Of a DNA stretch of 64,000 nt, positions 3,001 to 28,865 are shown one piece after another (within the stretch, counting starts at the first letter, position 1; every line of letters begins with the position of its first letter). A program made the translations under genes and the position numbers. Source of the DNA: a virus; the IMG/VR virus record IMGVR_UViG_3300032180_000001, positions 96,001 to 160,000 of that record. One strand, 5' to 3'. Below the pieces are notes generated by a model. The model was not told where the DNA came from. It saw only the letters and a list, made by a program, of their open reading frames with translations, and did no database searches.

Positions 3001-6000
3001 CACACCGCCACTCTTGCTGGCCATTGCGGTGAGCGCACTTCCGTATAGTTCGAATACCTGCGGGCGAACTTGATCCTGCAGCGCACTGAAAGAATTACCT
3101 AGTGAACTTACCTTTGTCGTAACGCCACCTGCTTGAGCGCCTAGCTTCTGAAGACTACCGCCTGCCGACACCACCATGAAATTCATCTGCGTGCCCATAG
3201 CCGTCGTCACAGTACCCAGATTTTTCACATATGTGGTAACCTGCGTAACCGCATCTTTGGCAGCAAGAGCAAATCCGCCGAGACCGAGCGCCAGCGTAGC
3301 CAGCGCCGGAATCCAGACGGCAAAAATTTCAACAGCCAGTTCCATGGCGATATGCCAGAGCTTGACGCTTTTCGCCGCACCATTAAATGCCTGAACCTGC
3401 TGCTGCATCCAGCCGAACCAGCCACCCGCACCCTTTGTGAGGAACGGGGTAATACCACCTCCGCCGGCTGCACCTGCCGCACCTGCTGCAGCGGCTGCAA
3501 GAACTCCACCCCCTCCACCGCCCTTGCCCCCGCCTGCACTCCCAGCCATAGTAGTGGCCATGACGGAACGCAATCTCCCGTACGCAGAGGCGAGATCTTT
3601 CACCCGGGCGATGTCTCCGGCGGTAGCCTTACTGAGGTCTATACTAGCTATATCTTTCAGTTCATCCTGAAGTCTTATCGCTTCGACAGCAATATCAGCT
3701 AGTACCCTCTTGGCGGAATCGCTGTCAACATGAGTTGCAAGGCTTATCAGGGTTTCCTTTATCTTCTTCGACTCAGCATCAAGCATAAATAGCTTATTCA
3801 TCGCCTCCGTAATGTCAATATTAGCGGCTGCGGTCTGCGGTGCAAGAAACTTCTGATATTCTTTAAGTGCAGCTTCCTGAAGTTTGCCGAGATCATTCCA
3901 GTCTTTCGTCATTTTCCGGGCTAGGTCATCCCAGGCTTTCCGCTGGTCCGCGTCAAACTTAAGATTATCCTTATTAGCGGACGCTTGCAGCTTACTGAGA
4001 TCATTCCAGTCTTTTGTCATTTTCCGGGCTAGGTCATCCCAGGTCTTCTGCTGATCCGCACCACCAGCAGCGCCACTCGCCGTATGCGCGGCTTTGACCC
4101 GCTTCAGTTCCTTTTCTGCCTGACTTAGCAGGGTTACCATCCGGATAACAGTGTCCGCCGCTGCCGCCTGGCTCATGAGGTCGACAGTCGACTGCTTCAT
4201 CTCATTCGATAGCTTGCTCTGCTCAATCCGGAGAATCATGGCCTGAGCAGCAGAATAACCGGCCTTCTCACCGAGATCAGACGTTGCAGCGTCAAGTTCC
4301 TTTAGTTTTGCTATCATATCAGCAGGAATAATAGTATTAAGCGGTTCGAATGCCTTTGCTGACTTTGCTGCCTGCGCTGCTGTTGCCGCCATAGTCGCGC
4401 CCAGTCCGCCGGTACTATCGGCTGCGGCATCTGCTGCCTTTTCCTGTACTTTTTCCGCAGCAGCAGCCAGGTACTCAGCCGCAGCCATCCCGCCTATCGC
4501 AGCGGTGGTGACAGTATATCCCTTATCAGCATAACCCCTAACGCCACCCTGACTTGACTCCCCGTATCCCTTGGCGTAAATAGCCCGGACGCGCTCAACC
4601 TCAGCAGCAGTCGTTTCAACTGTGTTCTTGAGCTTACCCCACTTACTAATTTGCAAGGTGATCGAAGTGTCCGCTGCTGCCGTTACCCGCTGATACTCCT
4701 GAAGGAAGCCTTTGCCCGTACCTACTTTCTCCGTCCAAGTGACTAGCTCCGCTGTTGCTTTCTCCATCGCCGGTGCCAGATTAACTTCCGGGGTGATCTT
4801 TGGCTTTTCCGTTGCGATTTTTTCGTCGAGCGCTGCTGCTTCCGCTAGTGCCGGTTTTTCATCAAGCTTCGGAGTAACAACCGGCGTATCAGCTTGATTG
4901 AAAGCAGCTTTCGCAGCCGTAGCAGCCTCTTTACTGCCATTCTCTATCGCCGTCCTGAACTCCCGGGTCGCGGCTTCCTTATTTACAGTTAGCGGCACCG
5001 CGACGGGCTTCATGACCTCCCCTACCCGGGCCTTAGCCGCCGTCATCATCATGTCCTGATACAGCTTATCGCGTGCTGCTTCCGACATCTTCGGCTCAAC
5101 AGGCACCTCGACTGGCTTACTGATCTTCGCGTCAAGCGCTGCCACCTCCGCCGTCGCCGGTCCCAGATCAACCTTCGGCTGAATGAATTCTTGCGACGAT
5201 ACTCGGTGCTTGTATTCCCCGCCGACAAACATGGCCTGCTGCCGCTGAAGATCTGTCAATGTCTGCTGGTTATGCTGCGGGACAAGGTTAACTTTCTGAT
5301 CCCGGTAAAGCTGGACTAGTGCTGCATCTAGATTCTTAACACCACTGAGCGCCGCCCGCAGATCCGTCAGGTTGATGTATCCTCCGGGCCTGTCCCCGCC
5401 TGCGGTTGCCATACTGCGGATCGTGGTCATAATCAGCTTGTCGAGCGCCATAACTTCCGTCATGGCCGGAGCCGTGTCCGCAGTAATCGACACCTCGGGC
5501 TTCTCTGCTTCTATAGCTTTGTCAAGCGCTGTGCATTCTGCCATGGCAGGAGCTGTGTTCAGTTCGGGGGTAACGACGGGCTTAGCTGCGGTAAGAGCAG
5601 CCTGAAATTTTTCCTGAACCTTGCGCATAAGAGCGGATGACTCGAAAGCTGCAAGGAACTCATTTATATCCGGAACAGCTTCGACAGGAACGGTTAGCTT
5701 AGTACTACTCCATTGTGCGCCAAGTGCCTGTGCGGCGGCAAGATTAGCATCCTCAACTTCTGTTCTATAGGTATCAAAAAATTTCTTCTGTGCCTTCGTC
5801 AGCGGAACCGTGATCGCCTCAGCAGTTGCGTCACCCGCACCCTTCATCGTTGTCCGGACCTTGTCGGCAAACCCGGTTAGCGCTGTCTCCGACTCTTCTA
5901 TGCTCGGCCCGAGATCAACCGGTATCTCAACAGGATTGGCCTTCACCTCCGCAACAGCCGCGGTAACAGCCGTTGCGACCTCCGGCATGACCTTCGACGT

Positions 6001-9000
6001 GTCCGCAGTGAACGGAACGCTTGCCGCCGCCGCCGCTGCCGCCTCTTGCGCGGCCTTCTTCAGCCTGGCTTTCATCACCATGTCGGCCTGCTTCTCCGAC
6101 AGCCCGGCCGCGATCAGCTCCGGTATCCCTCCCGCGACGGGCTTGTACTCTTCCCGCCCGACCGACATCTGCACGCTCTTCATAAAGTCGGCCATATTGG
6201 CTTTAACCGGGATTGTCCGGCTCTGAGTTATCCGCGCCATCTCCGCCTGGATCTCGGCTTCGCTGAACTTAGCCTTCATTTCGACTGGATGAGCTGCAAT
6301 CTCGGCATCCGCCACCGCGACTACCTTAGCTACCTCCGGGGTAATCACCGTTGTGTCTGTCTTGATTTGTTCCACAATCGGATTAGCCGCTGCCCAGGCG
6401 CTTGCTGCTTTTTTCGCTTTATCTAGATCATCATCCAGGTCTTCCAGGTAGTCAGCCGCAGGCCGAACAGATACCGTAGCAATAATCTTATAACCGGTTT
6501 TTGATGCATAGCTACCAGAACTTGGGTAGGCTGACGCATGAGGGGCATTATCTGCCGGATTTACGGGGGCGACCTGGTACGTATATCGACCAAGCAGGTT
6601 AGCCGCATTTGGTTTCTCATTAGCCCACGCCAGTCCGCTCCTACCGGGGTTAATGATATCTCCGACATCTAGCTTCGCATTAGTTGCGTGAAACAGGTCC
6701 TTTACCTCAGTGACGGCAGCAGTGGCCTCTGAGATAATTTTTTCTGTGTCAAGTTCTACCGGAATTTTAGTGTTCCTGTACTTAGCCTTTATGGCGGCTA
6801 GCTGCGCCTCAATCGGATCTTTATTTATATCTGGCGTGAACTCCATCTTCATCGACTTCATAATCTCGGCGACCGACTTGTCCGGCACCGGTACTGCGTT
6901 CTCCGGCTTATACAGGACCTGAGTAGCGCCCTTAAATACATCCTTCGAAGGGACGTCGAACGACCGGACAACGAAACCAAGCTCTTTCAGCTTAGGCAGC
7001 CATTCATCAAACCAGGTGTTCAACTGCTTCATGTCCTCGAATGCGCTGCGAGCACCTTCGCTGAAAAGCTTTATTGCCTTGTCTTCACTGACGATGTTTC
7101 CAAGAAGCGAGTCTTCCCAGACAGGAGGGTGCTCCCAATCTCGGGCGTTGTGCGTTGATGGTGCCGTCTCGGACACGCCAGGACTGCCCGCGTACGGCCC
7201 CCTGCCGGTCTCTGCATGCTCAACGCGGAAGATGCGAGTCATCTCCTGCTTTACTGCGGCTTCAGCAGCTTTGTCCATAACAGGCTCAACCGTAACCGGC
7301 AGGGCTTCAAGGTGAATATTCCGAACGCCCTCAATAATTTGATCTTTAAGTACCTTAAACGGCTGATTTCTCGGGAAGGTAAATTCATGTGCGTCGTCCG
7401 GGAGATCCCCCAGGGCTATACTCTGCCTATTCAGGGCCTTGACTCCCGGTCCTGCAGTAATTTTCATCAAGGTGGTGCCGAATGTTTTTGCTACATCCTC
7501 CGACACTGCGGCGCTAGTGTAGCCCTTATCCTGGATTATCTGACCGGTCTTACTCCCAACACTACCGAGAATCTCATCAGGCTTATTAACACCCCGAAAC
7601 AAAGTAACCTGCTGAGTAAAATCTGATACTTTATTAATCAGGGAGTCAATATCTGAGACAATACTAGCAACACCATTATCCTGAGTACTTCCAGCACCCC
7701 CGACTGATAGACCCCTTAGTTGATCCTGTATTGTCTTGAAAGACCACTCGTAATACCTTTTCATAGCAAACAGGTCGTCTTCAGTCGTGCTGCTAGGAGT
7801 CCCTTCGCTGGACTTAGCTAGTTTCATTCCTGACAAAGCCTGCTTCATCTCCCGGGAGGCATCCCTGAACTCCCCAGCAGACATCTGCACGCTTCGCATA
7901 AAGTCGGCCATTGACGATCCAGCGCTCGCGGTCGGGCCAGGCCCTGCAACCCCCGCTCCCGCAACCCCCGCTCCCTCAAGCCCAGAAGAATCAACCCGGA
8001 TCTTGACCGTCCGGTCCCGGGTGACGATCTTCAGCATCTCTTCGGCCACATCGATCGAACGGTCATCCAGGTCGGCCCGTATCCTCACCATGCGCTCGGC
8101 GGTCAGCGCGTCCAGTGCCGCCTGCGCCGCAGCCGAGTCCAGGACGACGTCGATCTCAAGGTCCTGTCCCGGCGGGAGTACGAGCTTTCCAACGTCAAAC
8201 GTCACCGGAATCTGGGTAGTAAGGCTGCGAAGCTCCGCCAGCTTCCGGTCCAGATCAGCCGTGTTGATATCGATGCTCAGGTAGTCGGACAGACCGGTTT
8301 GCGCGATCAGCTTCTTGATCAGCATGAGCTGGCTGCGGATCTTCGACTGAGGCACGTTAACATCAGCGAAGTCCGCCAGGCCAGACTGGGCTGCCAAAGT
8401 CTTCAGCTTCGCGAACGCCGCAGGAGCGCCCTCAACATTGACGCCGACATCAACCGTCCGGTCCGCCGTCAGGGCATTCAGCTCCGTTTTCGCCGCCGTC
8501 ACAGAACCAGGCTTCAGGTAAAACTCGACCGGAATATCCGCCACGACATCCTGAGTAACGGCGGCAACCTTAACCTGCAAGCCAATTGCGGTACCCAGAT
8601 TGAACTCAGCCGGAATATCCGCCTTAACGCCTTCGGTAACCGCATCAACCTGAGCCTGCAGTCCGCCCGAGCCACCGCGGACACCAAGATCGACAGGAAC
8701 GAGTGCGCTGGCGCCTTCCGCCATGGCATCAATCTTTACCTGAAACTCGGCCCGAGATGGCATGTTAAGGTCAACCGGTATCTTGGCTCCGATACCCGCA
8801 GTCAGCGTCTCAACCTGAGCCTTCATTCCTGTTTTAGTTCCAGTCAGGTCAACAGGTACCTTCGCCTTGATTCCTGCAGTCAGCGTCTCAACCTGAGTCT
8901 TTACGGCTGCCTTTGAAGGAAGCTTAAATTCGACTGGTATCTTTGCCTGAATCCCCGCGGTCAGCGTCTTAACCTGGCCTTGCAATTTAGTCTTAGTCCC

Positions 9001-9159
9001 AGTCAGCTCAATTGGAACCTTTACCTGCAAGTCATGATCAGTAAGAGCCAGCTTGTTAACTTCCCCCACCGCAGTTTTTACCTGCTTGGTAAGATCAGCA
9101 AAAAAACCGTCATCATTTGGTTTAATGTTAACGTAGGCCTCTCCCAAAAGACGGGCCAC
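1..9159 (-). CDS. Tape measure protein, >3053 aa, 3' end outside the window; contains an internal ADP-ribosyltransferase block
   Basis: GTG at 9159 opens MARLLGEAYVNIKPNDDGFFADL..., next to the stop of the neck gene. The same frame is still open at position 1 (...IQEGAVIFDGMRHEGAHLWDEAISGLSGL). The ORF track reports no stop-bounded ORF from this start, consistent with an open 3' end. Ala/Gly-rich amphipathic repeats and position after the tail chaperones fit a TMP. Confidence 0.92.
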   Translation of the reverse strand, partial: MARLLGEAYVNIKPNDDGFFADLTKQVKTAVGEVNKLALTDHDLQVKVPIELTGTKTKLQGQVKTLTAGIQAKIPVEFKLPSKAAVKTQVETLTAGIKAKVPVDLTGTKTGMKAQVETLTAGIGAKIPVDLNMPSRAEFQVKIDAMAEGASALVPVDLGVRGGSGGLQAQVDAVTEGVKADIPAEFNLGTAIGLQVKVAAVTQDVVADIPVEFYLKPGSVTAAKTELNALTADRTVDVGVNVEGAPAAFAKLKTLAAQSGLADFADVNVPQSKIRSQLMLIKKLIAQTGLSDYLSIDINTADLDRKLAELRSLTTQIPVTFDVGKLVLPPGQDLEIDVVLDSAAAQAALDALTAERMVRIRADLDDRSIDVAEEMLKIVTRDRTVKIRVDSSGLEGAGVAGAGVAGPGPTASAGSSMADFMRSVQMSAGEFRDASREMKQALSGMKLAKSSEGTPSSTTEDDLFAMKRYYEWSFKTIQDQLRGLSVGGAGSTQDNGVASIVSDIDSLINKVSDFTQQVTLFRGVNKPDEILGSVGSKTGQIIQDKGYTSAAVSEDVAKTFGTTLMKITAGPGVKALNRQSIALGDLPDDAHEFTFPRNQPFKVLKDQIIEGVRNIHLEALPVTVEPVMDKAAEAAVKQEMTRIFRVEHAETGRGPYAGSPGVSETAPSTHNARDWEHPPVWEDSLLGNIVSEDKAIKLFSEGARSAFEDMKQLNTWFDEWLPKLKELGFVVRSFDVPSKDVFKGATQVLYKPENAVPVPDKSVAEIMKSMKMEFTPDINKDPIEAQLAAIKAKYRNTKIPVELDTEKIISEATAAVTEVKDLFHATNAKLDVGDIINPGRSGLAWANEKPNAANLLGRYTYQVAPVNPADNAPHASAYPSSGSYASKTGYKIIATVSVRPAADYLEDLDDDLDKAKKAASAWAAANPIVEQIKTDTTVITPEVAKVVAVADAEIAAHPVEMKAKFSEAEIQAEMARITQSRTIPVKANMADFMKSVQMSVGREEYKPVAGGIPELIAAGLSEKQADMVMKARLKKAAQEAAAAAAASVPFTADTSKVMPEVATAVTAAVAEVKANPVEIPVDLGPSIEESETALTGFADKVRTTMKGAGDATAEAITVPLTKAQKKFFDTYRTEVEDANLAAAQALGAQWSSTKLTVPVEAVPDINEFLAAFESSALMRKVQEKFQAALTAAKPVVTPELNTAPAMAECTALDKAIEAEKPEVSITADTAPAMTEVMALDKLIMTTIRSMATAGGDRPGGYINLTDLRAALSGVKNLDAALVQLYRDQKVNLVPQHNQQTLTDLQRQQAMFVGGEYKHRVSSQEFIQPKVDLGPATAEVAALDAKISKPVEVPVEPKMSEAARDKLYQDMMMTAAKARVGEVMKPVAVPLTVNKEAATREFRTAIENGSKEAATAAKAAFNQADTPVVTPKLDEKPALAEAAALDEKIATEKPKITPEVNLAPAMEKATAELVTWTEKVGTGKGFLQEYQRVTAAADTSITLQISKWGKLKNTVETTAAEVERVRAIYAKGYGESSQGGVRGYADKGYTVTTAAIGGMAAAEYLAAAAEKVQEKAADAAADSTGGLGATMAATAAQAAKSAKAFEPLNTIIPADMIAKLKELDAATSDLGEKAGYSAAQAMILRIEQSKLSNEMKQSTVDLMSQAAAADTVIRMVTLLSQAEKELKRVKAAHTASGAAGGADQQKTWDDLARKMTKDWNDLSKLQASANKDNLKFDADQRKAWDDLARKMTKDWNDLGKLQEAALKEYQKFLAPQTAAANIDITEAMNKLFMLDAESKKIKETLISLATHVDSDSAKRVLADIAVEAIRLQDELKDIASIDLSKATAGDIARVKDLASAYGRLRSVMATTMAGSAGGGKGGGGGGVLAAAAAGAAGAAGGGGITPFLTKGAGGWFGWMQQQVQAFNGAAKSVKLWHIAMELAVEIFAVWIPALATLALGLGGFALAAKDAVTQVTTYVKNLGTVTTAMGTQMNFMVVSAGGSLQKLGAQAGGVTTKVSSLGNSFSALQDQVRPQVFELYGSALTAMASKSGGVMQKLITDTGTALDRTAARIAVDMNKASSGTGLSNFIKMGQRDIAGLATAFANLGALLGALAGITQRTHIAEIMLGIGVAVTKLFRVVADFIHTPFGGALAAWAIGLHALYAWSGLAATALLNLVERLGIGLAAAKGWAVVGPMFEALGGRIARFGEVLKGLGPAAVSGAIFIAAALAAVVVWAVKAQDAMQKYASAQIAAVANSTPITMLSTTENSLKNVTAAWRQAVASGSADARTLGQSRQQLLGDFTLESERLVQISKLYGISLPAAMQLAQTAGVKVSDFTNADNKAWATSMQMIASLVTGYLNMGQTMGMVGSDMNVLSVTANDQVTAINNLTSAWDTWYGIVTGTQTSMATFGQSMKTFNTDIASGTSTYDTVNTDFQSLLTNANSLVDANMKAGASGPQLTSSIADTGAAMVTAAGNNKTWQAEVVSWVQRAAPYVTTFQQATNWISQMGGSLTKLQGNQNAVTIGNSNLTGKAAALAHTLQSDLTPAQQALVGSTGKVQTALAKFTTDLGKGNKAAASKDRVQLLADLKSVGIYGPDAAKYVNDLANYTLNLGKATTAAKPGTSSFSDTIQSLRLNLKQIIDVVGIPLMHGLNLFAGWVKDISKNTAGKLFLESIAVTLAGIALLKFTGVTSLFKALSGSSLLGRLTGGLLGGKVDGSNAAALMRTAFEEGGTSAAAMIREALVSGGATVATEETAGAATGGKFGPPTGIPGARGTSDVVQGGELAAGGFFSRFGTWFKGLFGKAGGGAEGAGGEGLLRGAGGTALIAAIIGQVLGRVSNAVVGKPTQASNLATYNKTVPGWFQPIANLLFTRQGAANISVGGANAVTGFFTGHRTSDSGQGGPRDPNSVVGALGSSSKTIGGVFHTAWAGVFTGFQHDVADKIYDFFVGSKGSDLKGFLSNTLKLFDGFWSIIAQGFHNRFVHAIGDSFPHEMAVVFDGARHEGAHLWDDAISGLNGLVNRAIQEGAVIFDGMRHEGAHLWDEAISGLSGL
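3890..4045 (-). repeat. 108-bp-period tandem repeat within the TMP (WDDLARKMTKDWNDL x2)
   Basis: gagatcattccagtcttt(c/t)gtcattttccgggctaggtcatcccagg occurs near 3890 and 3998. Confidence 0.85.
6472..6696 (-). other. Arr-like (H-type) ADP-ribosyltransferase domain inside the TMP
   Basis: Hand translation: LFHATNAKLDVGDIINPGRSGLAWANEKPNAANLLGRYTYQVAPVN...SYASKTGYKIIATV. This follows the rifampin-ART Arr pattern FxHGTxAxLxxGDxL...YxVxP...SY. Confidence 0.65.
6901..7236 (-). other. Phage 'YRVE..GPY..HP..WF..GF..G..QV' globular domain inside the TMP (possible ART-like fold)
   Basis: Hand translation: RIFRVEHAETGRGPYAG...EHPPVWEDSLL...SAFEDMKQLNTWFDEWLPKLKELGFVVRSFDVPSKDVFKGATQVLY. The pattern resembles small free-standing phage proteins; the fold assignment is inference. 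Confidence 0.5.
7310..7790 (-). other. VIP2/C3/Alt-like (R-S-E clade) ADP-ribosyltransferase domain inside the TMP
   Basis: Hand translation: ...MKRYYEWSFKTIQDQLRG...SDIDSLI...TLFRG (R at 7594-7596)...IIQDKGYTSAA (S-T at 7513-7518)...AKTFG..LMKI..GPGVKAL...AHEFTFPRNQPFKV (E at 7384-7386). Confidence 0.85.
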
Positions 9160-9565: not shown

Positions 9566-9950
9566 TTACATCCCCATAAAAGACCCGGGGATCTCCTCGT
9601 CCTTGCCTTCTGCTTCCCAGGGCACAAGATTGCCGTCGGCTCCCTTGCGGAACCCACTGACAGGGGCGTCCGGGTTCTCGACCACCATTCCCGCTGCCTC
9701 CTGGAAGGCTTTCAGTGCCTTCAGCGCCTCCTTCTCCGGATCGACGCGCTGGCCGATCGTTTCCTCGAACGCTTCCAGCTGGTCGGCGTCCATGCCGTCC
9801 GTGCAGATCGCGTACACCATGTTGAGCAGCTGGCGCGGGGTTAGCGCCTCGATGCCTTTTTCCGTGTGCCGGAGCCGTTCCCCGTCGAGACGCGCTGAGT
9901 GGTGGGCGGCGTAACTGAGGAGCCATCGCGCGGCTTGGTAGGGCGCCCGG
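9566..9950 (-). CDS. Tail assembly chaperone, frameshifted C-terminal extension (G-T type)
   Basis: The -1 frame is open from about 9950 (APYQAARWLLSYAAHHSARLDGERLRHTEKGIEALTPRQLLNMVYAI...) to 9566 and overlaps the 3' end of the upstream chaperone ORF. Confidence 0.7.
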
Positions 9951-10608
9951 AGACGATCTCCATCACCTGCGAGATCACCGGCAGAAGCTCTTCCGCGTCA
10001 GCCTTGGTCTCGATGGCATGATTCTCGAAGGCCTGCCAGTCGCCCGTGTCGAACGACTTGCACATGGCCTCCCGGCCGGCCTTGCAGTGCTCGCAGTTGC
10101 CGCATGCCTTCGAGCCCGCATAAATGCAGTCTCGCAACATCATGTAGACCGCTCCCAGGGCGCGCGGGTCGTCGGATGACATATCCGCCGCGGACGCGTA
10201 CTTGAGCAGGGGCATCAGGCCGATCTTCTCCGCGATGCGGAACTTCTTCCCGAGCAGCTCGATCGTGTCGTGGTTCTCGATGACCGCACCCTCGGTGATC
10301 ATCGGCGCCCCCTCGGCCTTCGCGGCCCTGGCGTGCACGACGGCGAGATCCCGGTCGTCCTCGTTCGAGATGCCGTTCGCGGCTGCCGTAGCGGCTGCCT
10401 GAGGGGGCGTCACCGGTGCGGGCACAGAGGCGGGTGCGGAAGACTCCTCTTCCTCATCATCATCATCGTCGTAGTCGTCGACCGGAGTCGGCGTAGGGGT
10501 AGCGCGTGCGGCTGGGCTCCGGTACGCAGGAGGCGGTGTCGGGGTAGGCACATTGTCGGCTTCATTCCAGTCGATCTCGATATCGTAATCGGCTTCCTGA
10601 GCAGGCAT
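9841..10608 (-). CDS. Tail assembly chaperone
   Basis: Follows the major tail protein. Acidic/Pro-rich N-terminus; ends ...VSGRPTKPRDGSS..., typical of actinophage chaperones. Confidence 0.75.
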   Translation of the reverse strand: MPAQEADYDIEIDWNEADNVPTPTPPPAYRSPAARATPTPTPVDDYDDDDDEEEESSAPASVPAPVTPPQAAATAAANGISNEDDRDLAVVHARAAKAEGAPMITEGAVIENHDTIELLGKKFRIAEKIGLMPLLKYASAADMSSDDPRALGAVYMMLRDCIYAGSKACGNCEHCKAGREAMCKSFDTGDWQAFENHAIETKADAEELLPVISQVMEIVSGRPTKPRDGSSVTPPTTQRVSTGNGSGTRKKASRR

Positions 10609-10710
10609 TTTAACTTCTCTCTATTGTCTGATAGTGTCTGAAAGCGGTCCGGTCCACTTAGGGAACGTGAGCCATAGATGCAACGGCCGGATCGCATTTT
10701 CTTTGAGGAA

Positions 10711-10745
10711 CTCCCCCGGCCAGGACCCTTTCGCAGCCGGGGGAG
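10711..10745 (-). terminator. GC-rich hairpin after the major tail gene (terminator or processing site)
   Basis: 10-bp inverted repeat ctcccccggc...gccgggggag about 40 nt after the major tail stop. Confidence 0.45.
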
Positions 10746-10785
10746 CTTCTTTCTTGTTTTGTTACGGATGGTGCTAGCGATACGG

Positions 10786-11534
10786 TTACGTACCGGAGAT
10801 GCCCGTGGTGGGATAGCGCATTATCGCGCTTGCTGCGCTGAACGTGCTCTTCATGGAGACCGCTGCCGCAACGCCGCCGGCGACGGCGTAGTCGGGAAGG
10901 ATCTTGCCGAAGAAGTACTGGCCTGGCCCGGCTCCCTGCACGCCGACCGTGGACGGGTAGAGGTAAAAGTTCCGGGGCTGGCCGTCGGTCGCCGCGACGT
11001 AGGTCTGCGCAGTGGCAGTGTCGTAGAAGCCGGTAAAGTCACCGGATGCGTCCGGCAGGCCGGCCACCCAGATCAAGTTAGAGTCTCCCATGGTGGTGAC
11101 GTCTACCTTGGCGACGGTGAAGTTGAGGCTCCAGTCTGACAGAAACGCCATCGGGCTTGCTGAGTCGGTCGGGTTTACGCCAATGTAAGCGATCGTTCTG
11201 TTACCTCTCGTCCTTTTTACAGGGCGAGCGGGCTGGTCATTTCTGCCAGCCTCTGCATGTCTCCATGCAGTCCGGACTATACCTTCACCCACAAGGGGTG
11301 CCACGTACCTAGTCTCTGAACCATCCCGTCGAGACCTTTCAGTTCAGGCGGGCTCGGCTGCTGATTACCCCTGCTAATCTCTTTTTGAACCATCGCGCTC
11401 GCGTTTTCACGCCACGCTGTGGTGCGATCAGGTGACTCGGGCGTCCCAGCAATTCTCGCAGTTTGCACTGAGTGATTGCTCTCTCAGGCGGCCAGTCGAC
11501 CGTTGCGTCCATGAATTCTCGAGATGGTACTCAT
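10786..11534 (-). CDS. Major tail protein, spliced: exon 1 11534-11499 + exon 2 11193-10786 (147 aa)
   Basis: RBS AAGGAG then ATG gives MSTISRIHGRNG, which joins in frame to IAYIGVNPTDSASPMAFLSDWSLNFTVAKVDVT... once the intron is removed. Confidence 0.88.
11194..11498 (-). ncRNA. Group I self-splicing intron, 305 nt, no internal homing ORF
   Basis: P AAUUGCUGGGA (11444-11454), Q AAUCAGCAGC (11357-11366), R GUUCAGAGACUA (11310-11321), S AAGGUAUAGUCC (11274-11285). The 5' exon ends in U, which can pair in P1 (CGGU/GCCG). The intron ends in G. Splicing restores the reading frame. Confidence 0.92.
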
Positions 11535-11570
11535 CTCCTTCTGTATCGGCGCCTTGACGCCATACGGGAG

Positions 11571-11609
11571 AGACCGGCTCCAAGCGCATCGTGCCCGTGG
11601 CCGCGATCT
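11571..11609 (-). promoter_or_regulatory. Conserved late-leader hairpin (copy upstream of major tail gene), with -10 TACTAT at 11625-11630
   Basis: AGAUCG-CGG-CC-loop-GG-AGC-CGGUCU. Confidence 0.7.
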
Positions 11610-11825
11610 AGTGCTGCTCCTGCCATAGTAACTGTCTCGGAGGCGGATTGAAAGCTGCGCCGGATGCACTTACCAATCTGGCGGGAGATTACTTCTCGGA
11701 GGACTTCCAATCTCCTTTACAGAAGGGACCGAGTGGATGGCTAGATGACACTCTCCCTGTTGTGATAGGATTTTCTTATCTACAATCGCGCCAAAAGCTA
11801 GTCAACCCCAAAGAGGTGCCTGATT

Positions 11826-12941
11826 ATGAAAGAGAAAATCTGCATCGATTGTGGCAGAACTTACACACACGGCGGACGGGGGCTGTGCCCGAACGACTAC
11901 GCAAAAAGGAAGCGCTACGGAACACTTCCGCCCCTGAAAACAAGAGGCCCCGACGCTCAGTGCAAAGCTCCCGAAGGATGCACGAACATGGTAGGGCGCT
12001 CCGGCGCCAGAGGGCTGTGCCCTAAGCACTACCAGCGACTTGTCAAGTCAGCTGGAGGGCTGGAGCAACCGGTGCGAACGGCTCCACTAGCGGCGAGGTT
12101 TCGCGCGAAAATAAGTACCGAGCCATGCCCGTGCGGTTGCGATTGCGAACTGTGGACGGGAGGGATTCAGCCTAAAACCGGGTACGGTAATTTCTCGATC
12201 AAGAACAAGACTTATCTAGCACATCGCGTCGCGTGGGAGCTGGAGAAAGGCGAGATACCGGACGATTTCGATATCGATCACGTCCAGGAGCGCGGCTGCC
12301 GTCATAGGCATTGTGTTAAGATTACGCACCTGGAACCTGTTCCGACGGTGCTGAACAATCGGCGTATACCAATGACGGAGCAGCGAAGAGACGGACTTTC
12401 GGAAGCAGGAAAGAGGGGATCTGCCATCCGCTGGGCAAGAGTCCGGGCCGGTGAGGCTGAAGTCGATCAGGCAATCTGCTCCCGGGTTCTCGCTTTCGTT
12501 CTTGCCCATCCCGATGGTAGTCGTGCGCGGCAGATAGCAGAGGCGCTGGATATGTCTATCCACAACGCAAGGCAAGGTCTTACCCGTCTCGCTAAACGCA
12601 AGATGATTCTCGGTAATGGTTCCGGGCTTTACCAGCCGCTACCTGCTGAAGAATGCTGGCGTCCTGTGCGAGGCTATGCCGCGTTTTATGAAATCTCTGA
12701 CCGGGGGAACGTCTCTGCCCTGGCCCGGCCGCGAACGCACGGCGGACTGCTGATTCCCCAGCTCAACTCCGCAGGCTTCCGGGTTGTTCGGCTGTCTAAG
12801 TACGGTCAAGTGACAACATGGACTGTAGGACGACTCGTGCTCGAAACGTTCTGCTGGCCACCTCCGCATCCGAAGGCGAGAGCGAAGCATGGCCTAAACG
12901 GTAAGCTAGATGACGCACTGTCAAATCTTCACTGGAGTTAA
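11826..12941 (+). CDS. HNH homing-type endonuclease fusion (Zn motifs, HNH, HTH, truncated NUMOD4-HNH)
   Basis: LAHRVAWEL...DIDHV...HLEPVPTVLNNR; then ECWRPVRGYAAFYEISDRG...HGLNGKLDDALSNLHW. Confidence 0.85.
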   Translation: MKEKICIDCGRTYTHGGRGLCPNDYAKRKRYGTLPPLKTRGPDAQCKAPEGCTNMVGRSGARGLCPKHYQRLVKSAGGLEQPVRTAPLAARFRAKISTEPCPCGCDCELWTGGIQPKTGYGNFSIKNKTYLAHRVAWELEKGEIPDDFDIDHVQERGCRHRHCVKITHLEPVPTVLNNRRIPMTEQRRDGLSEAGKRGSAIRWARVRAGEAEVDQAICSRVLAFVLAHPDGSRARQIAEALDMSIHNARQGLTRLAKRKMILGNGSGLYQPLPAEECWRPVRGYAAFYEISDRGNVSALARPRTHGGLLIPQLNSAGFRVVRLSKYGQVTTWTVGRLVLETFCWPPPHPKARAKHGLNGKLDDALSNLHWS

Positions 12942-12949
12942 ATAAAACC

Positions 12950-13186
12950 ATGACTGACTACAGGGATGCTCACCGCGACGCGATGGCCGCCGTGCAATGC
13001 GAGGTCAACGACGACACCGAGGGCGTAATGGCGGTGCTGAACAACGCGAGCAACCTGGCTGCCACGGCACAGATCCTCGCCATCTGGCAGGCAGGCTTCC
13101 TCCGGTACATAGCCTCAGAAAGCGGTGCCCCCGTGCAGGAAGTGCTCGCCGCCTGGCGAAGGAACGAGGAGACGAGGAGCACCTGA
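12950..13186 (+). CDS. Hypothetical protein
   Basis: 78 aa, phage-like codon usage, directly after the HNH gene. Confidence 0.55.
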   Translation: MTDYRDAHRDAMAAVQCEVNDDTEGVMAVLNNASNLAATAQILAIWQAGFLRYIASESGAPVQEVLAAWRRNEETRST

Positions 13187-13517
13187 TCCTGGCCGGAAAG
13201 CGATGGCGCAACGAACCGGTGCCTGGTAAATTTCTTGCGTCGAGCCCCCGCACCTCCGGTTCCCGAAGCCTCGCTAGGCAGTGGAACGGGAGGAATCATG
13301 GTTCAGGCGGTACCAGAAGGTCGTGAAAGCGGGTACGGATCGCACGTCAGAGAAGCCGCGGAGACAAGGGCAGGGCGGCCCTGCCGGCTAGGGATGAGGC
13401 CGGCACCTTCCTGATCGGGATCCCTGGTTGCGTGCCCTCCTACTCTGTTATACTCTAAGCGTAGATAGAAACGAAGGAAGCAGAGTCACGGCCGACCGCT
13501 ACACGGGGAGTAACCAG

Positions 13518-14162
13518 ATGAGCGCAAATGTCGACGGAGGTGGTAAAAAATTTACCTGCTCGCGCTGCCATCGAGACGATCTAACGGAAGACGACTTCCC
13601 GATCGACTTGCGTCGAACATCAGGTCGATACCCCTGGTGCAAGCCTTGCAAGGCTGCATACATGCGAGAGAAATATCCTGAACGATACTCTGATGAGCAT
13701 CCAGGCCCACCTCTGTCTCCTGTCTGCACAGGATGCGGTGGACCACGGGGGGCTAAGCGTGCCCGTTGCAATGAATGTGAAGCAAAATACCAACGAGAAT
13801 ACCGCCATGGTGTAGTAATTAAGGAGTCGCCACTGACACTTGAACAACGAACTGAAAGACGTAAACAGAGTCAACGAGAGTCAAAAAGGCGCACAGAACT
13901 TCGACGCTACGGAACAACCCCAGAAGAATGGGATCGAGTACTTGTAGCTCAAGGAAATTGTTGCGCTATCTGTCGTACGAATACGCCTACAGGCGCTGGA
14001 GCTAAATACGGGCACTGGCATACAGATCACGACCACGCAACAGGAAAACTGCGCGGACTACTATGTTCATCATGCAATCTTCTCCTTGGACATGCTGAAG
14101 ATAATCCCGCACGACTGCGAGCAGCAGCAAATTACCTAGAAAAATACCTAGAAAAGGATTAA
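13518..14162 (+). CDS. Endonuclease VII-family protein with N-terminal Zn fingers
   Basis: QGNCCAIC...HTDHDHATGKLRGLLCSSCNLLLGHAEDNPARLRAAANYLE. Confidence 0.88.
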   Translation: MSANVDGGGKKFTCSRCHRDDLTEDDFPIDLRRTSGRYPWCKPCKAAYMREKYPERYSDEHPGPPLSPVCTGCGGPRGAKRARCNECEAKYQREYRHGVVIKESPLTLEQRTERRKQSQRESKRRTELRRYGTTPEEWDRVLVAQGNCCAICRTNTPTGAGAKYGHWHTDHDHATGKLRGLLCSSCNLLLGHAEDNPARLRAAANYLEKYLEKD

Positions 14163-14165
14163 ATT

Positions 14166-15236
14166 ATGCCTGCTGGTGAAATTCAAGAAATGTTCAGTGT
14201 CCGAGAGACGCCGTGGCACCGTCAGGGTCATGTTCTCGACGACTACCCGCAGACCTTCGAGGAGGCCCGCAAGCTTGCCGGGCTCGACTGGGATCCGATT
14301 GCTGTCCCCGTCTACCAGGGGCTGGACAAGGACAGGCTTCGTGAACGGATCGTTGAGGCCCTTAGAGAGGAGAGGCCGCTTGAGCAAGTCGATGCCCTTC
14401 TCGCAGCCTGCGATCAGTCACTCATCACCGACAAGGAGTTCCGACGCATCGCCCGCAGCGACGACGTGCCCAAGTCGCTCTCCTATCAGCGCGACAGTTA
14501 CAACATCATCCCGAACAGCGTCTTCGGCGAGATCATCGACTCGATCACCGGCGCCGCGCCAGGCAAGATCCGGCTGGAAACAGGTGGCTGCCTGTCCGGG
14601 GGCCGCCAGGTCTGGATACTCGCCCGCCTCGACGAGCCCATCGAGTTCAAGGGCGACAAGTCGCTGACCTTCCCGCACCTGGGTATCACCAGTCGTAACG
14701 ACGGCAAGGCATCCTGCGCCGCCCGACTCACTACCGTCAGAATCGTCTGCTGGAACACCTTCAGCGCTGCGGAAGCCGAGGGTGAGCGCACCGGCGCGGT
14801 GTACAGCTTCAGCCATCGCGGTAACTGGCGTGACCGGATCGGCGAGGCTCGCGAGGCACTGATGTTCGCCCGGCGTGAAGCTGCCGAATACGTCGAGACG
14901 ATGACCGAACTGCTCGGCATCAAGGTCACCTCGGTCCAGGAGCAGCTGTTCCTGCAGGCGTTCATCCCGTCACCGCCCGAAGGCGTCATCTCCGACCGGG
15001 TAGCAAAGAACATCGACGAGGCACGGGCAGCCGTTGCGGGCTTCCTGAACAGCCCGACGGTGGAAGGTGCCGGCGTCCGCGGTACTGCCTACGGTCTGGT
15101 GCAGGCGGCAGGTGAGTACCTCGATCACGCACGCCGGGCGAACAGTTGGGAAACGAAGATGGGGAGGTCGATTTTGCGGCAAGAACCCTTGAAAGCAAAG
15201 GCTGCTCAGCTGGCCCGGCAGGCGGCGCTGGCGTGA
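14166..15236 (+). CDS. DUF932 (TIGR03299-like) phage/plasmid protein
   Basis: MFSVRETPWHRQG...ARKLAGLDW...ETGGCLSGGRQVWILAR...RIVCWNT...GTAYGLVQAAGEYLDH. Confidence 0.85.
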   Translation: MPAGEIQEMFSVRETPWHRQGHVLDDYPQTFEEARKLAGLDWDPIAVPVYQGLDKDRLRERIVEALREERPLEQVDALLAACDQSLITDKEFRRIARSDDVPKSLSYQRDSYNIIPNSVFGEIIDSITGAAPGKIRLETGGCLSGGRQVWILARLDEPIEFKGDKSLTFPHLGITSRNDGKASCAARLTTVRIVCWNTFSAAEAEGERTGAVYSFSHRGNWRDRIGEAREALMFARREAAEYVETMTELLGIKVTSVQEQLFLQAFIPSPPEGVISDRVAKNIDEARAAVAGFLNSPTVEGAGVRGTAYGLVQAAGEYLDHARRANSWETKMGRSILRQEPLKAKAAQLARQAALA

Positions 15237-15430
15237 CGAACACACCCGGTCCGATCCTGCTCGAAACCTCTTCCGCTGACGTTAGCCTCAGTCCGGTCAC
15301 CCCAGAATCGTGCGATCGCTGCGGCCCAGCCGTCCGGGCGCTCTGGCAGGTCTCGGCCGGAACAGGAGTGCTGACCTTCTGCGGGTCGTGCTACCGGAGG
15401 TTCCGGAAGATAGCAGCGAGCCGGGAATGA
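15233..15430 (+). CDS. Small CxxC Zn-binding hypothetical protein
   Basis: CDRCG...FCGSC; GTGA and ATGA overlaps with its neighbours. Confidence 0.55.
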   Translation: MTNTPGPILLETSSADVSLSPVTPESCDRCGPAVRALWQVSAGTGVLTFCGSCYRRFRKIAASRE

Positions 15431-15521
15431 TCTGTTTCGTCCCTCGGTTACACCACCTCGTACCTCAGCACACCCCAGGCGAGACTCATCAGGAGTCGCC
15501 GAGAGAGCCGAGGAGAACAAG

Positions 15522-15995
15522 GTGCTATCAGCACTCGCAGCAATTTTCATCACAGTCCAGCCCGGAGACACGCTGTCCGGCATCGCCGTCAGTCACGGTG
15601 TGTCACTTGCCGCGGTGGAGGCGGCCAACCCCCAGATCGAGAACTTCAACCTGATCTACGCGGGCAACCGGGTCGCCATTCCGAAAGGGGGCAGCTACCA
15701 GGCGCAGCCTCAGCCGACCTACCGCCAGCCATCGCAGGCCCCGTCAAACAGTTACGGCGTTGCGGGCACAGGCGGCGGTTCCCTGTCGGATGTCCCGGGC
15801 GTCCCGTCGTCGTTCGCAGCATGCGTGGCCCTGCGAGAGTCGGGTGACGGGTCGGGCAGCTCGAACATCTACGGGATCATCCCTGGGAGCGGATACAGCG
15901 TCGCAGGTGACTCGCTAGCGCAGCAGAAGGCGGTGTTCGCCCAGATCTATCAGAGGTATGGAGTGACAGCCTGGCAGCCCTGGGACGGATGTTAG
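15522..15995 (+). CDS. LysM plus minimal lysozyme-like (Rpf/transglycosylase-like) protein
   Basis: LysM: TVQPGDTLSGIAVSHGVSLAAVEAANPQIENFNLIYAGNRVAIP. C-terminal CVALRESG...NIYG...QQKAVF...YGVTAWQPWDGC with catalytic Glu and a flanking Cys pair. Confidence 0.8.
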   Translation: MLSALAAIFITVQPGDTLSGIAVSHGVSLAAVEAANPQIENFNLIYAGNRVAIPKGGSYQAQPQPTYRQPSQAPSNSYGVAGTGGGSLSDVPGVPSSFAACVALRESGDGSGSSNIYGIIPGSGYSVAGDSLAQQKAVFAQIYQRYGVTAWQPWDGC

Positions 15996-16059
15996 AGTGG
16001 CCGAAAAGGCACTCCATCCGTTAACCTGTACCTGATGGGTCGTGGCTGACCCTGGGCAG

Positions 16060-16098
16060 AAGAACCACCGCTCCCCGTGTCAGGAGCGGTGGTTCTTT
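16060..16098 (+). terminator. Rho-independent terminator
   Basis: aagaaccaccgctcc-ccgtgtca-ggagcggtggttctt followed by t. Confidence 0.75.
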
Positions 16099-16183
16099 CA
16101 CGCTCGGCCCTCCGGATGGGGTATTATATGTGTAGCGGGTTTAGAGTGAACAACTAGTAAAGAGAAGGGGACGGGAAAGTAGC

Positions 16184-16432
16184 GTGCTGATAAAGCAGAA
16201 ATCTCATCCGATGCCCGATGAGGTCCTGCTGGTCGCCCGGATGGAAGCGGAAGACCGTCGCAAGACCCGGGAAGAGTACTATCACTGGCAGGAGCGGGAT
16301 CTCAGGATCCGGCTGGCGATCTACACCGACATCGTGACCGGAAAGCGCTTTCCTGCCGAAGGTCGCACCTACTACAAGGTCCGCATCGCGATGATCCGCA
16401 ACGAGCTGAAGGCGCGGAAGGCGGGGCCATGA
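16184..16432 (+). CDS. Hypothetical protein
   Basis: 82 aa ORF with purine-rich RBS; meets the minus-strand operon tail to tail. Confidence 0.55.
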   Translation: MLIKQKSHPMPDEVLLVARMEAEDRRKTREEYYHWQERDLRIRLAIYTDIVTGKRFPAEGRTYYKVRIAMIRNELKARKAGP

Positions 16433-16819
16433 CTAGTGCGGATACAGAGCCTTGCAGTCCCGCGGAGCGTCCTTGGCGTTCACGATCGCGCGCAGCTCGG
16501 TTACCTCCGCTATTATCTTCGGCGTCAGCTTTGCTCCCTTCGGCGTCGCATCAGAGAAAAATGCGCCCCAGAGAAGTTTATCTTGCGCTCGTGCACTATT
16601 ATTTTCCACGCACTGACTGTACTGAACGACCGCTTCACCGCTGTTCCCGTGAATCTGCCCGATCGTCAGGAAAACAACGATGATCGACAGTGCTACATCC
16701 AGGCAGATGGAAACAGCCAGCATCAGCGCGGTCTTCTTGCTGGCTTTGCCTCGCTGCAACTGCCCGATCAGCCTCATCGCCGTGCTGATCAGGGCCTCAT
16801 CATCCTCTTCCGGCTTCAT
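16433..16819 (-). CDS. Single-TM membrane protein with external Cys pair (paralog A)
   Basis: TAMRLIGQLQRGKASKKTALMLAVSICLDVALSIIVVFL...QC...DC. Confidence 0.7.
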   Translation of the reverse strand: MKPEEDDEALISTAMRLIGQLQRGKASKKTALMLAVSICLDVALSIIVVFLTIGQIHGNSGEAVVQYSQCVENNSARAQDKLLWGAFFSDATPKGAKLTPKIIAEVTELRAIVNAKDAPRDCKALYPH

Positions 16820-17214
16820 CTCGTCCCCTGTCCGTATACTTGCTGGCAGTCCACAGGAATATAAAGAGCTTCAACTACTTTCAGGAAAGATTTACCGAGC
16901 GCGTTACTATGAAAATCCTCAGTATTCAGTATCCACAGACTAACAAACTCCTGCTGAGTAGCATTGCTCTCATTGCAAATGGTCAGCTCCTGTGAGCGAA
17001 GTCGGTTTTCCTGATCAACAAGTCCGGAATTACTGTGCGACAACCCGACCCCGAGAAGTATCACCACAATGGAAAGCGTGACATCCAGAAAAATAGAAAT
17101 AGCGAGCAACAGCACAGTTTTCTTGCTGGCCTTCGTCCGCTGAAGTTTCTTTATCAACTCCATCGCAGTGCCGATCAGAACATCATCGGCGGGTTCCTCA
17201 GTTCTGTCCGGCAT
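16816..17214 (-). CDS. Single-TM membrane protein with external Cys pair (paralog B)
   Basis: TAMELIKKLQRTKASKKTVLLLAISIFLDVTLSIVVILL...IC...DC; RBS aggag before ATG 17214. Confidence 0.7.
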   Translation of the reverse strand: MPDRTEEPADDVLIGTAMELIKKLQRTKASKKTVLLLAISIFLDVTLSIVVILLGVGLSHSNSGLVDQENRLRSQELTICNESNATQQEFVSLWILNTEDFHSNALGKSFLKVVEALYIPVDCQQVYGQGTR

Positions 17215-17419
17215 CCGATCGCTCCTGCTCGATAACGCGCAGCATAATAGCCGCTGCCATCTTATCCCGATTCGGTTTCTTCGCATCCTCGCGAATCGAG
17301 ACCAGCAAGCTAATAAGCCGCAGCATATCTCCGTTCGTCAGTCGTCCTTCCTGATACCCTTCGAGCAGGCGATCAAGATCAGCCTTATCCGAATTAAGCT
17401 CGTCCACGATCACCGCCAT
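17198..17419 (-). CDS. Small helical protein, LDxLLE..AAAIMLR family, copy 3
   Basis: KADLDRLLEGYQEG...DKMAAAIMLRVIEQE; TAATG overlap with the upstream gene. Confidence 0.65.
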   Translation of the reverse strand: MAVIVDELNSDKADLDRLLEGYQEGRLTNGDMLRLISLLVSIREDAKKPNRDKMAAAIMLRVIEQERSDAGQN

Positions 17420-18264
17420 TATTTCCGCCCCAGCCGCAGGTACCACATCCGTGCGGACATCTCCCTCTCCGGAGCGAGAAAGGCTAGCGCCCAGGTGCCG
17501 AACCAGATAAACCAGCCCGCATCCCCAACGGACGGCTGACTCCAGCTCCAGTGCAGGATGGCATACGCGAACAGCGAATCAGAGGCCAGTAGCCCCAGTG
17601 CGCCGATGCTAATCAGCCAGAAGGAATTCGACACCCTCGTTCCGTGACGAAAATGCCGCATGGCCAGAACGATGGTGACCAGCGCGCAGATCTGCAGCAG
17701 CAGTAGAATGTCCGCCGTCGGATAGGCGATGGATACTACCTTGGCGATGGTCGAGGCGCCACTGGCATGCGCGTTAGGACTGATGAGGAGAGGCCAGGAG
17801 AACAGCCCGAAAGTAAGACCTGTTACCGCCACTGCCACCGCTGCGGCACGCCGGTTCACGTGGATGTTGCCGCCGCTGGCCAGCATCACCAGTCCGGCCA
17901 CGAAAAATACGTAGCTGCTCAGTTCCAGCGCGTCGGACAGCCCTGGATAAGGCACGCTGTCCGTGATCTTCGTGTAAGCGAGAGCCGTTCCAGCGCCCAG
18001 CAAGTTCAACGCCATCCCGACGAGCAGTAGCAGCCAGGCGAACTTCCGCCGACTGGGATTAAGCACGACGCCGAGGATCATCCCCGCTACGGCCAGTCCC
18101 AGAACCGGCATGAACCCCACCGTGATCCAGCCAGGCACTTTCGGCTGAATGTAGTAGGCGACGATGACCGCGATGTAGCCGAGAAGGAACAGCGCCTGCG
18201 CCTGGCTCAGGAAACCGGGCCAGGGCGCAGCTGGCTTTCCGGTGTCCGATGCTGAAATAGCCAT
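17419..18264 (-). CDS. Multi-pass membrane sensor-like protein with no cytoplasmic output domain
   Basis: About 8 hydrophobic helices with PYPGLSDALEL, SIAYPTADILLL, LLASDSLFAY and DAGWFIWF motifs, resembling the N-terminal TM input region of actinobacterial GGDEF/EAL proteins. Confidence 0.7.
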   Translation of the reverse strand: MAISASDTGKPAAPWPGFLSQAQALFLLGYIAVIVAYYIQPKVPGWITVGFMPVLGLAVAGMILGVVLNPSRRKFAWLLLLVGMALNLLGAGTALAYTKITDSVPYPGLSDALELSSYVFFVAGLVMLASGGNIHVNRRAAAVAVAVTGLTFGLFSWPLLISPNAHASGASTIAKVVSIAYPTADILLLLQICALVTIVLAMRHFRHGTRVSNSFWLISIGALGLLASDSLFAYAILHWSWSQPSVGDAGWFIWFGTWALAFLAPEREMSARMWYLRLGRK

Positions 18265-18530
18265 TACGATTCTCCATTCGCTTCCGGAACTACTCTTCTG
18301 GTGATCTGAACAACACGGCAGGGTGCCCCGCGGCAGGCTCTGGCGAGCTGTTTCGCCTCATCAAGCGTCAGCGGCCCCGTCAGTGAGAACCCGAGAAACG
18401 ATCTCACCTCGAACCCGGCTCCTCGCCACGCACCGAGAAGAAACCACTCGACATCATATTCTTCAGCCCAGCCAGCATCCGGCTCGATCTCGCGATCATC
18501 TGAACTGTCGTCTTCTCTCCATGCCTCCAT
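18264..18530 (-). CDS. Hypothetical protein
   Basis: 88 aa, translationally coupled within the operon. Confidence 0.5.
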   Translation of the reverse strand: MEAWREDDSSDDREIEPDAGWAEEYDVEWFLLGAWRGAGFEVRSFLGFSLTGPLTLDEAKQLARACRGAPCRVVQITRRVVPEANGES

Positions 18531-28859: not shown

Positions 28860-28865
28860 AGTAGT

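Follow-up and report, generated by a model that had tools for sequence, protein, structure and literature searches.

Locus organization and intron detection

The window analysed here is a stretch of phage DNA of 64,000 nucleotides (nt), corresponding to positions 96001-160000 of the IMG/VR record IMGVR_UViG_3300032180_000001. The full record (184,980 nt, estimated to be 99 % complete) represents an uncultured 185-kb soil phage, the genome of which was recovered from a metagenome. On the minus strand of the window, the single-copy gene assigned to the major tail (tube) protein is split at 11498-11194 by what is very probably a functional, self-splicing group I intron devoid of an open reading frame (ORF), residing in a phage that probably infects Actinomycetota (Table 1). 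Splicing is suggested by the RNA structure, its covariation among related introns, the match between guide and exon, the essential nature of the interrupted gene and the precedent of mycobacteriophage Baka.

Searching the entire window with the Rfam covariance models yielded a sole match reaching the gathering score of any family, namely RF00028 at 11253-11508 of the minus strand (52.5 bits versus a gathering score of 50 bits; E 1.7e-10; model positions 1-253, i.e., the whole model). The intron proposed in a preliminary description, which had been made from the sequence without database searches, is thereby confirmed, as are its P, Q, R and S elements (AAUUGCUGGGA, AAUCAGCAGCC, GUUCAGAGACUA and AAGGUAUAGUCC, respectively). 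Both RF00028 and a family-specific hidden Markov model (HMM) detect one intron in the 184,980-nt genome; the family HMM scores it at 271-295 bits. With RF00028, other introns of the family reach up to 86 bits.

Splice junction, reading frame and start codon

The intron begins with CGACUGGCCGCCUGA and ends with GUAACAGAACG. Exon 1 closes with U (11499) and the intron with G (11194), both as claimed beforehand, and exon 2 opens at 11193 with ATC GCT TAC ATT GGC GTA (IAYIGV) and runs to the stop at 10786. This junction scored best in a blind search of every U...G splice pair located at most 14 nt from each end. The joined exons are predicted to read CGCAACGGT followed by ATCGCTTAC, corresponding to the N-terminal peptide SRIHGRNGIAYIGV. 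The exact restoration of the frame that had been described holds as well: the joined SRIHGRNG/IAY equals the uninterrupted reading of intron-less homologues. With exon 2 as query, 801 homologous proteins were retrieved, mostly of 144 residues and starting with an unbroken (M/V/L)SRIHGRNGI(A/V)Y, and in 80 related IMG/VR loci the contiguous motif was hit 75 times, representing 50 distinct DNA alleles. Since intron-less homologues read through (M/V/L)SRIHGRNG-I(A/V)Y, the junction does not represent a chance match of frames.

The public gene call (P0001, 172 residues) starts inside the intron at GTG 11304, as the preliminary description had noted for its ORF track. Its first 37 residues have no homologue outside this genome, and SRIHGRNG, an invariant motif, is missing from the 172-residue form. 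Where translation of the tube protein truly begins is uncertain, because a Shine-Dalgarno-like AAGGAG abuts ATG 11534 with zero spacer (11523-11540, minus strand), whereas the start codon of most relatives aligns with ATC 11525-11523, 9 nt past AAGGAG.

Secondary structure and covariation

To collect related introns, IMG/VR was queried by BLAST and with three exact motifs; an HMM built from nine introns then gave 123 nhmmer hits in the loci retrieved. The alignment comprises 37 full-length, distinct family introns. RNAalifold predicted 74 pairs for these, 53 of which show compensatory double changes; addition of the P7 pseudoknot by hand brought the number to 79. Standard pairs occupy 97.7 % of the 2890 cells of the 79 pairs, and both sides have changed in 56 of them. 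As controls, none of 500 shuffles reached any of five measures, and sliding the 3' partners by 1-3 columns reduced pairing to 31-42 %. The core helices P3-P8, including the P3/P7 pseudoknot, are present, as is characteristic of group I introns. Folded alone, the window intron is unremarkable (z = -2.3); the weight of the structural evidence lies in covariation and not in single-sequence folding.

The P1 partner named in the preliminary description was recovered: exon CGGU pairs with intron GGCCG, with a U.G wobble at the splice site. An extra P1 pair is formed by intron C1 (11498) and G6 (11493), leaving GACU as loop. Three of the five P7 pairs are compensatory, with U-A changed to C-G in 10 sequences. 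P9, P9.1 and P9.2 constitute a peripheral 3' domain (11270-11207, minus strand), followed by a GUAACA element, for which a pairing partner was sought and no convincing one found.

In subgroup IA2, represented by the T4, Twort and SPO1 phage introns, additional helices P7.1 and P7.2 are typical. Between the 5' strand of P7 and the 3' strand of P3, all 36 core-aligned members possess only the 4 nt GGUA; this gap leaves no room for P7.1/P7.2, and the window intron is not IA2-like.

Table 1 Features of the interrupted tube gene, its intron, neighbouring genes and related introns (positions refer to the window unless preceded by a locus name; compensatory pairs refer to the 37 aligned introns)
Feature	Position	Strand	Remarks
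Group I intron, ORF-less	11498-11194	-	305 nt; RF00028, family HMM, covariation
Predicted tube gene, exon 1	11534-11499	-	MSTISRIHGRNG; ATG 11534 to GGT 11499; U at -1
Predicted tube gene, exon 2	11193-10786	-	IAYIGV...GISGT, 135 residues plus stop; 801 homologues, PHROG major tail protein, tail tube fold
Mis-called ORF P0001	11304-10786	-	172 residues; first 37 residues are translated ribozyme
P1	11489-11502	-	Exon CGGU (11502-11499) with guide GCCG (intron 7-10, 11492-11489)
P2	11487-11468	-	Hairpin CUGAGAGA-GCAA-UCACUCAG; GNRA loop; 7 of 8 pairs compensatory
UGA in frame with exon 1	11486-11484	-	Four codons into the intron, foot of P2
P3	11461-11457 with 11305-11301	-	3 of 5 pairs compensatory; encloses P4, P5, P6 and 5' strand of P7
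P4	11451-11446 with 11364-11359	-	Mapped from family alignment
P5/P5a/P5b	11441-11369	-	GAAA loop; compensatory pairs: P5a 7 of 7, P5b 5 of 8
P6/P6a	11358-11320	-	P6a 4 of 4 pairs compensatory
P7	11314-11310 with 11279-11275	-	Pseudoknot GACUA/UAGUC; presumed guanosine-binding helix
P8	11300-11286	-	Within P7; 4 of 5 pairs compensatory
P9	11270-11253	-	GAGA loop; 5 of 7 pairs compensatory
P9.1	11251-11231	-	GAAA loop; 7 of 8 pairs compensatory
P9.2	11228-11207	-	6 of 6 pairs compensatory
GUAACA element	11204-11199	-	GUAAC (11204-11200) invariant and A 11199 nearly so in 37 introns; 5-10 nt before 3' splice site
Overlapping ORF pair	9841-10608 and 9566-9997	-	-1 frame relation; conserved downstream of tube gene in relatives
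Giant tape-measure-like ORF, 3' part	1-9159	-	Open frame of at least 3053 residues, runs off the window; named by gene order
Free-standing HNH_3 + NUMOD4 endonuclease gene	11826-12941	+	Pfam, PHROG; divergent, 292 nt from tube ATG
Endonuclease VII-domain gene	13428-14162	+	Pfam, PHROG; same plus-strand island
Tube-gene site s1, IHG/RNG			5' exon CACGGU; L027/28/30, L066, L067, L086/87, L096a
Tube-gene site s2, RNG/IAY			5' exon AACGGU; window only
Tube-gene site s3, LTD/W			5' exon ACCGAU; L047
Tube-gene site s4, NFV/V			5' exon UUCGU; L081
Tube-gene site s5, AKV/DV			5' exon CAAGGU; L106
Tube-gene site s6, AMG/DQN			5' exon AUGGGU; L096b
Intron-borne endonuclease	L115:819-1550		GIY-YIG-like
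Intron-borne endonuclease	L138:2044-3039 and L108:4485-5351		HNH-like
Intron-borne endonuclease	L132:7352-8137		Another endonuclease
Intron-borne endonuclease	L121:4948-5577		LAGLIDADG-like motif

Identity of the interrupted gene

The major tail protein named in the preliminary description agrees with the fold, with Pfam domains in relatives, with PHROG and with gene order. Exon 2 alone matches just two PHROG families annotated as major tail protein, and these weakly (E 1.7e-5 and 4.7e-5); Pfam gave no match for exon 2 and the neighbouring small ORFs, nor did a profile search hit any PDB sequence. A profile search over 1.8 billion representatives retrieved 393 relatives. Among 90 of these, PF06199 (phage tail tube protein) was matched by six (best E 5.7e-11), Phage_TTP_16 by five and Phage_TTP_11 by five. 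The AlphaFold model of the intron-less homologue P0002, which is 84 % identical to exon 2, attained a mean predicted local distance difference test score (pLDDT) of 91 with a deep alignment of 90 sequences as input, whereas a shallow alignment (39 sequences, 70-90 % identical) had given an unusable pLDDT of 34. Foldseek matched this model at probability 1.0 to the tubes of 80alpha, monocin (MttP), siphophage R4C and lambda (gpV) (template modelling score 0.72-0.78) as well as to those of a gene transfer agent (GTA) and SPP1 (0.67-0.71). A lead from the ESM Atlas also points toward a tail tube.

In relatives, too, the tube gene is followed by the ORF pair and then by the tape measure gene. Modelled fold, Pfam matches in relatives and gene order thus identify the predicted product of the interrupted gene as the major tail (tube) protein, encoded once in this nearly complete genome. 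The ORF pair downstream (9841-10608/9566-9997) carries GGAAAAAGG eight codons ahead of the first stop and looks like a programmed-frameshift pair of tail assembly chaperones (G/GT).

Distribution of the intron family, target sites and guides

Phage contigs of IMG/VR contain many relatives of the window intron, which together form a large family without an earlier name. In relatives of the phage, the tube gene is interrupted at six sites, all within the first ~46 codons (s1-s6 in Table 1), and one 190-kb relative (L096) harbours two introns in this gene. Capsid genes are likewise affected: those homologous to the capsid gene of the window, itself free of introns (L099, L123 and, with two introns, L146), those of two other types, phrog_10 (L084, L093, L098) and phrog_1357 (L104, L122, L131, L133), and the gene of a PHROG family 13692 protein (L138 and others). 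The family HMM yields up to five hits per gene, and RF00028 independently detects two to three per gene in L096, L122, L131, L133 and L146. As many as four or five hits per gene are seen in the capsid genes L133:5664-7722, L122:1666-4014 and L131:4466-6424 (also L098, L137, L138 and L147). Exons in these multi-intron genes are as short as 39-54 codons, and the hits beyond those of RF00028, found by the family HMM only, represent Baka-type or divergent copies.

At each site with a fixed junction, the guide (alignment columns 13-16) pairs with exon positions -1 to -4. The column preceding it is paired to the first nucleotide of the intron and exon position -5 stays unpaired throughout, resulting in a P1 of 5 base pairs. 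In the tube gene, the combinations of 5' exon and guide are CACGGU and AACGGU/GGCCG, ACCGAU/GUCG, UUCGU/GCGA, CAAGGU/GCCU and AUGGGU/GCCC; at capsid sites they are CUCGAU/GGUCG as well as AGCGGU and UGCGGU/GGCCG. Unambiguous junctions were not obtained for the capsid introns L123 and L146a. The guide thus changes along with its target, which is direct evidence for selection on the copies to splice.

Introns at s1 and s2, at the capsid sites of L099 and L146b and in Baka are all inserted after CGGU and share the guide GGCCG. Occupation of s2 was seen in the window alone. This site is 9 nt away from s1, the most frequent one, and both have ACGGU as target and an identical guide. In the window, s1 reads CAU GGA, whereby the alternative target is destroyed. 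Among the 50 intron-less alleles, CACGGT is found at s1 in nine and AACGGT at s2 in five. In a tree of the introns calculated without P1, copies from tube and capsid genes of this phage lineage are interleaved in one clade (support 0.82; internal supports of the tree 0.76-0.94), and the highest identity to the window intron is that of the capsid-gene copy in L093 (83.9 %).

Several kinds of endonuclease genes are present within family introns, in the P8 loop (HMM positions ~195-206; Table 1). The intron-bearing tube gene of L066 (IMGVR_UViG_3300044814_000124) contains seven extra bases, TTAGCTC, at 2997-3003, between TTC CTT and AGC GAC TGG. They break the frame and open with the rare codon TTA, and could reflect an assembly error or a dead gene.

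BLASTN in distant mode with 10700-11650 and TBLASTN with exon 2 gave no match in 50,697 deposited phage genomes. Of the loci scanned in a collection of bacterial genomes, only four, all on contigs of metagenome-assembled genomes (MAGs) of Actinomycetota (Streptosporangiaceae, Acidimicrobiaceae and two unclassified), carried full-length members. The P3-P4 motif alone was rejected as a family marker, as it hits many phyla including many Proteobacteria. Together with the homology of the 3' domain to that of mycobacteriophage Baka, the restriction of full-length members to Actinomycetota MAG contigs makes the earlier designation as an actinophage probable, and the host is probably a member of the Actinomycetota.

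Predicted splicing and the in-frame stop codon

In the late transcript, the intron would fold into a P3-P9 core with peripheral hairpins capped by GNRA loops, and its 4-nt guide (GCCG plus the wobble G) would pair with the CGGU at the end of exon 1. Exogenous guanosine bound at P7 is expected to attack after U 11499, upon which the freed exon 1 would attack after G 11194 and join GGT to ATC. The spliced mRNA would encode a tube protein of 147 residues, MSTISRIHGRNG-IAYIGV. On unspliced RNA, ribosomes would stop at the UGA before P2 and be kept off the ribozyme core. Each of the 14 family introns with known phase has an in-frame stop among its codons 1-9. In ten of them, this stop is a conserved UGA, part of CCUGA at the base of P2, despite P1 loops of 5-14 nt and differing insertion phases. 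A possible reason is selection for stopping ribosomes that would otherwise unfold the ribozyme; the T4 td intron provides an analogy. The dependence of tail production on guanosine and Mg2+ proposed in the preliminary description would be a matter of chemistry general to group I introns. The family as a whole has colonised those late genes of related phages that are expressed most highly (tube, capsid).

Neighbouring nuclease genes

Upstream of the tube gene, the window contains an insert of ~9 kb (11648-20483) including a plus-strand island with the HNH, endonuclease VII and DUF932 genes; in relatives, the tube gene directly follows a homologue of 20635-21345. An HNH homologue occupies the same upstream slot in 35 of 70 intron-less versus 4 of 7 intron-bearing loci. 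This slot can thus be regarded as a hot spot of nuclease genes and not as a predictor of the intron, and the suggestion in the preliminary description that the HNH enzyme encoded at 11826 mobilises the intron in trans finds no support in these counts.

Collaborative homing is described for the ORF-less psbA intron with the free-standing F-CphI of cyanophage S-PM2 and for a DNA polymerase intron with a free-standing nuclease in T3/T7-like phages (PMC3984707; PMC6083498). The window resembles these pairs in combining an ORF-less intron with free-standing HNH- and endonuclease VII-type genes within 0.3-2.6 kb. It differs from a co-inherited homing pair in that the presence of a nuclease does not track the intron among the window's relatives.

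Weighing of alternative explanations

Several points weigh against a functional intron. The RF00028 score exceeds its cut-off by only 2.5 bits, P1 is short (four exon pairs plus one intron pair), and a search for a P10 pairing with the 3' exon gave no convincing candidate. The window copy has an A-A mismatch at one position of P2 and its P5a/P6b pairing is less clean than the family consensus. Among the listed sequencing runs containing the stretch none is recorded as RNA, the sole run with the full stretch being one of soil DNA that may be the source sample, and the viability of this particular phage, known from a metagenome-derived genome, is unproven. The low Rfam score, the few imperfect pairs and the lack of an RNA run among those listed would also fit a decayed, non-splicing relic, with the tube gene being a pseudogene or expressed from GTG 11304 as the 172-residue protein. 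Such decay is nevertheless highly improbable, given that no second tube gene accompanies the interrupted one in this genome of an estimated 99 % completeness, that core helices and guide-exon pairing are all intact and that reading frame and codons of the exons are preserved. Moreover, the 172-residue form would dispense with SRIHGRNG and instead carry the 37 ribozyme-derived residues that lack homologues in other genomes. Thus, a functional, self-splicing intron remains by far the preferred reading.

The route by which the window copy reached its site is not settled. In case of collaborative homing, the product of the HNH gene (11826-12941) or of the endonuclease VII gene (13428-14162) would cut intron-less alleles near their 5' end during co-infection, repair would copy nuclease gene and intron together, and the intron, by splitting the target, would protect its own allele. 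The HNH_3 + NUMOD4 gene on the opposite strand 292 nt upstream, the occurrence of a related nuclease gene in that slot in half of the relatives, the endonuclease VII-like gene that immediately precedes the interrupted tube gene in L086/L087 and the published pairs of free-standing nuclease and ORF-less intron (PMC3984707; PMC6083498) are in line with this route, and the clustering of the six sites in the first ~46 codons beside the slot, although only suggestive, is compatible with co-conversion near a nuclease cut. However, adjacent nuclease genes are not enriched at intron-bearing loci, most of the adjacent homologues match only the C-terminal ~100 residues of the HNH protein, and the latter has no similarity at E 1e-6 to the endonucleases inside family introns. 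The family copies in capsid genes would, moreover, need another explanation. Overall, this route appears unlikely.

Guide-directed ectopic insertion, which would involve reverse splicing into abundant late mRNA and copying back to the DNA level or some equivalent process, has support no weaker than that of homing, neither route having been shown, and may tentatively be considered, albeit at less than even chances. The window copy would then represent a recent 9-nt hop from IHG/RNG to RNG/IAY, a second ACGGU, with unchanged guide. Related introns (76-84 % identity) at six tube and several capsid sites, always after a 4-nt guide match, the common CGGU target and GGCCG guide of s1, s2, the L099/L146b capsid sites and Baka, and the interleaving of tube and capsid introns in the tree, with a capsid intron as the nearest by identity, are in line with such events. 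The same holds for the nature of the targets, which are the most abundant late transcripts, and for the change of s1 to CAUGGA in the window, and the frequent changes of s2 in s1 alleles. On the other hand, mobility by reverse splicing is without direct experimental support (PMC3984707), and no reverse transcriptase came up, though none was looked for. A 4-nt target occurs every ~256 nt, which leaves the clustering of sites unexplained. Most sites also have differing guides, so that one would additionally have to assume that guides mutated once inserted or that selection acted on random insertions. The supports of the tree, furthermore, are moderate (0.76-0.94).

Implications

Introns in virion genes of actinophages were already known, and the spread of the family over multiple sites and genes with retargeted guides is of more interest than the single copy. 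Because gene callers start or stop inside the introns, annotation is wrong for the tube protein encoded here as well as for tubes and capsids of many relatives in IMG/VR, with certain capsid genes being broken into as many as six fragments. In terms of RNA biology, one and the same ribozyme is available in dozens of naturally varied copies at different sites, each having a 4-nt guide that fits its site and a stop codon in frame before P2. These copies form a data set on site choice and adaptation of group I introns, for which direct evidence was lacking according to a review of 2014 (PMC3984707). Production of tail tubes and capsids would depend on ribozyme folding. If ectopic insertion were true, the family would provide the clearest natural evidence so far for mobility of the reverse-splicing type of group I introns in protein-coding genes, and a tractable system with a 4-nt guide and many naturally retargeted copies.

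Comparison with known phage introns

Staphylococcus phage Twort reportedly contains three related group I introns in the single gene orf142 (Landthaler and Shub, 1999). The introns of Twort and those of T4 (td, nrdB, sunY) resemble the window family in the occurrence of related introns within one phage gene, in early in-frame stops and in ORF-less members. They belong to phages of low-GC or Gram-negative bacteria and are generally of subgroup IA2, whereas the window family is devoid of P7.1/P7.2.

Closer counterparts are found in Cluster J mycobacteriophages, where Pope et al. (2013) demonstrated splicing by reverse transcription PCR for an endonuclease-containing intron in the capsid gene of LittleE and for a 265-nt, ORF-less intron in a minor tail gene of Baka and Optimus (PMC3706429). 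As in the window's family, ORF-less and endonuclease-bearing forms coexist among Cluster J introns. The Baka and window introns both interrupt late virion genes, of an actinophage in the one case and of a probable actinophage in the other, with U ending exon 1 and G ending the intron, and the guide region of Baka (UGGCCGCC, after an exon ending in GCGGU) is that of the window. In Baka 27600-29000, the family HMM matches the intron with positions 205-296 (nhmmer E 4.4e-16). The 3' domains, comprising the 3' strand of P7, P9, P9.1, P9.2 and the GUAACA tail, are homologous (77 % identity over 62 nt). Homology is seen over the 3' ~90 nt and the guide region, and the central core P3-P8 is not alignable; the P5a/P5b extension is a feature of the window's subfamily and not of Baka, the Baka intron stays below the cut-off of RF00028, and its host gene encodes a minor tail protein in place of the tube protein.

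The intron at s1 in the tube gene of L067 (2722-2991) combines the guide/P2 region and P9 domain of the family with a Baka-type core (66.5 % over 209 nt), so that two core types share end domains and target sites. This suggests recombination between two intron types with common ends.

In view of the LittleE capsid and Baka/Optimus tail introns (PMC3706429) and of the frequency of the family in capsid and tube genes of uncultured relatives, the preliminary description overstated its case in calling a location in an actinophage tail-tube gene uncommon. The window intron and its family extend the Cluster J precedent, and group I introns seem to be regular residents of actinophage virion genes.

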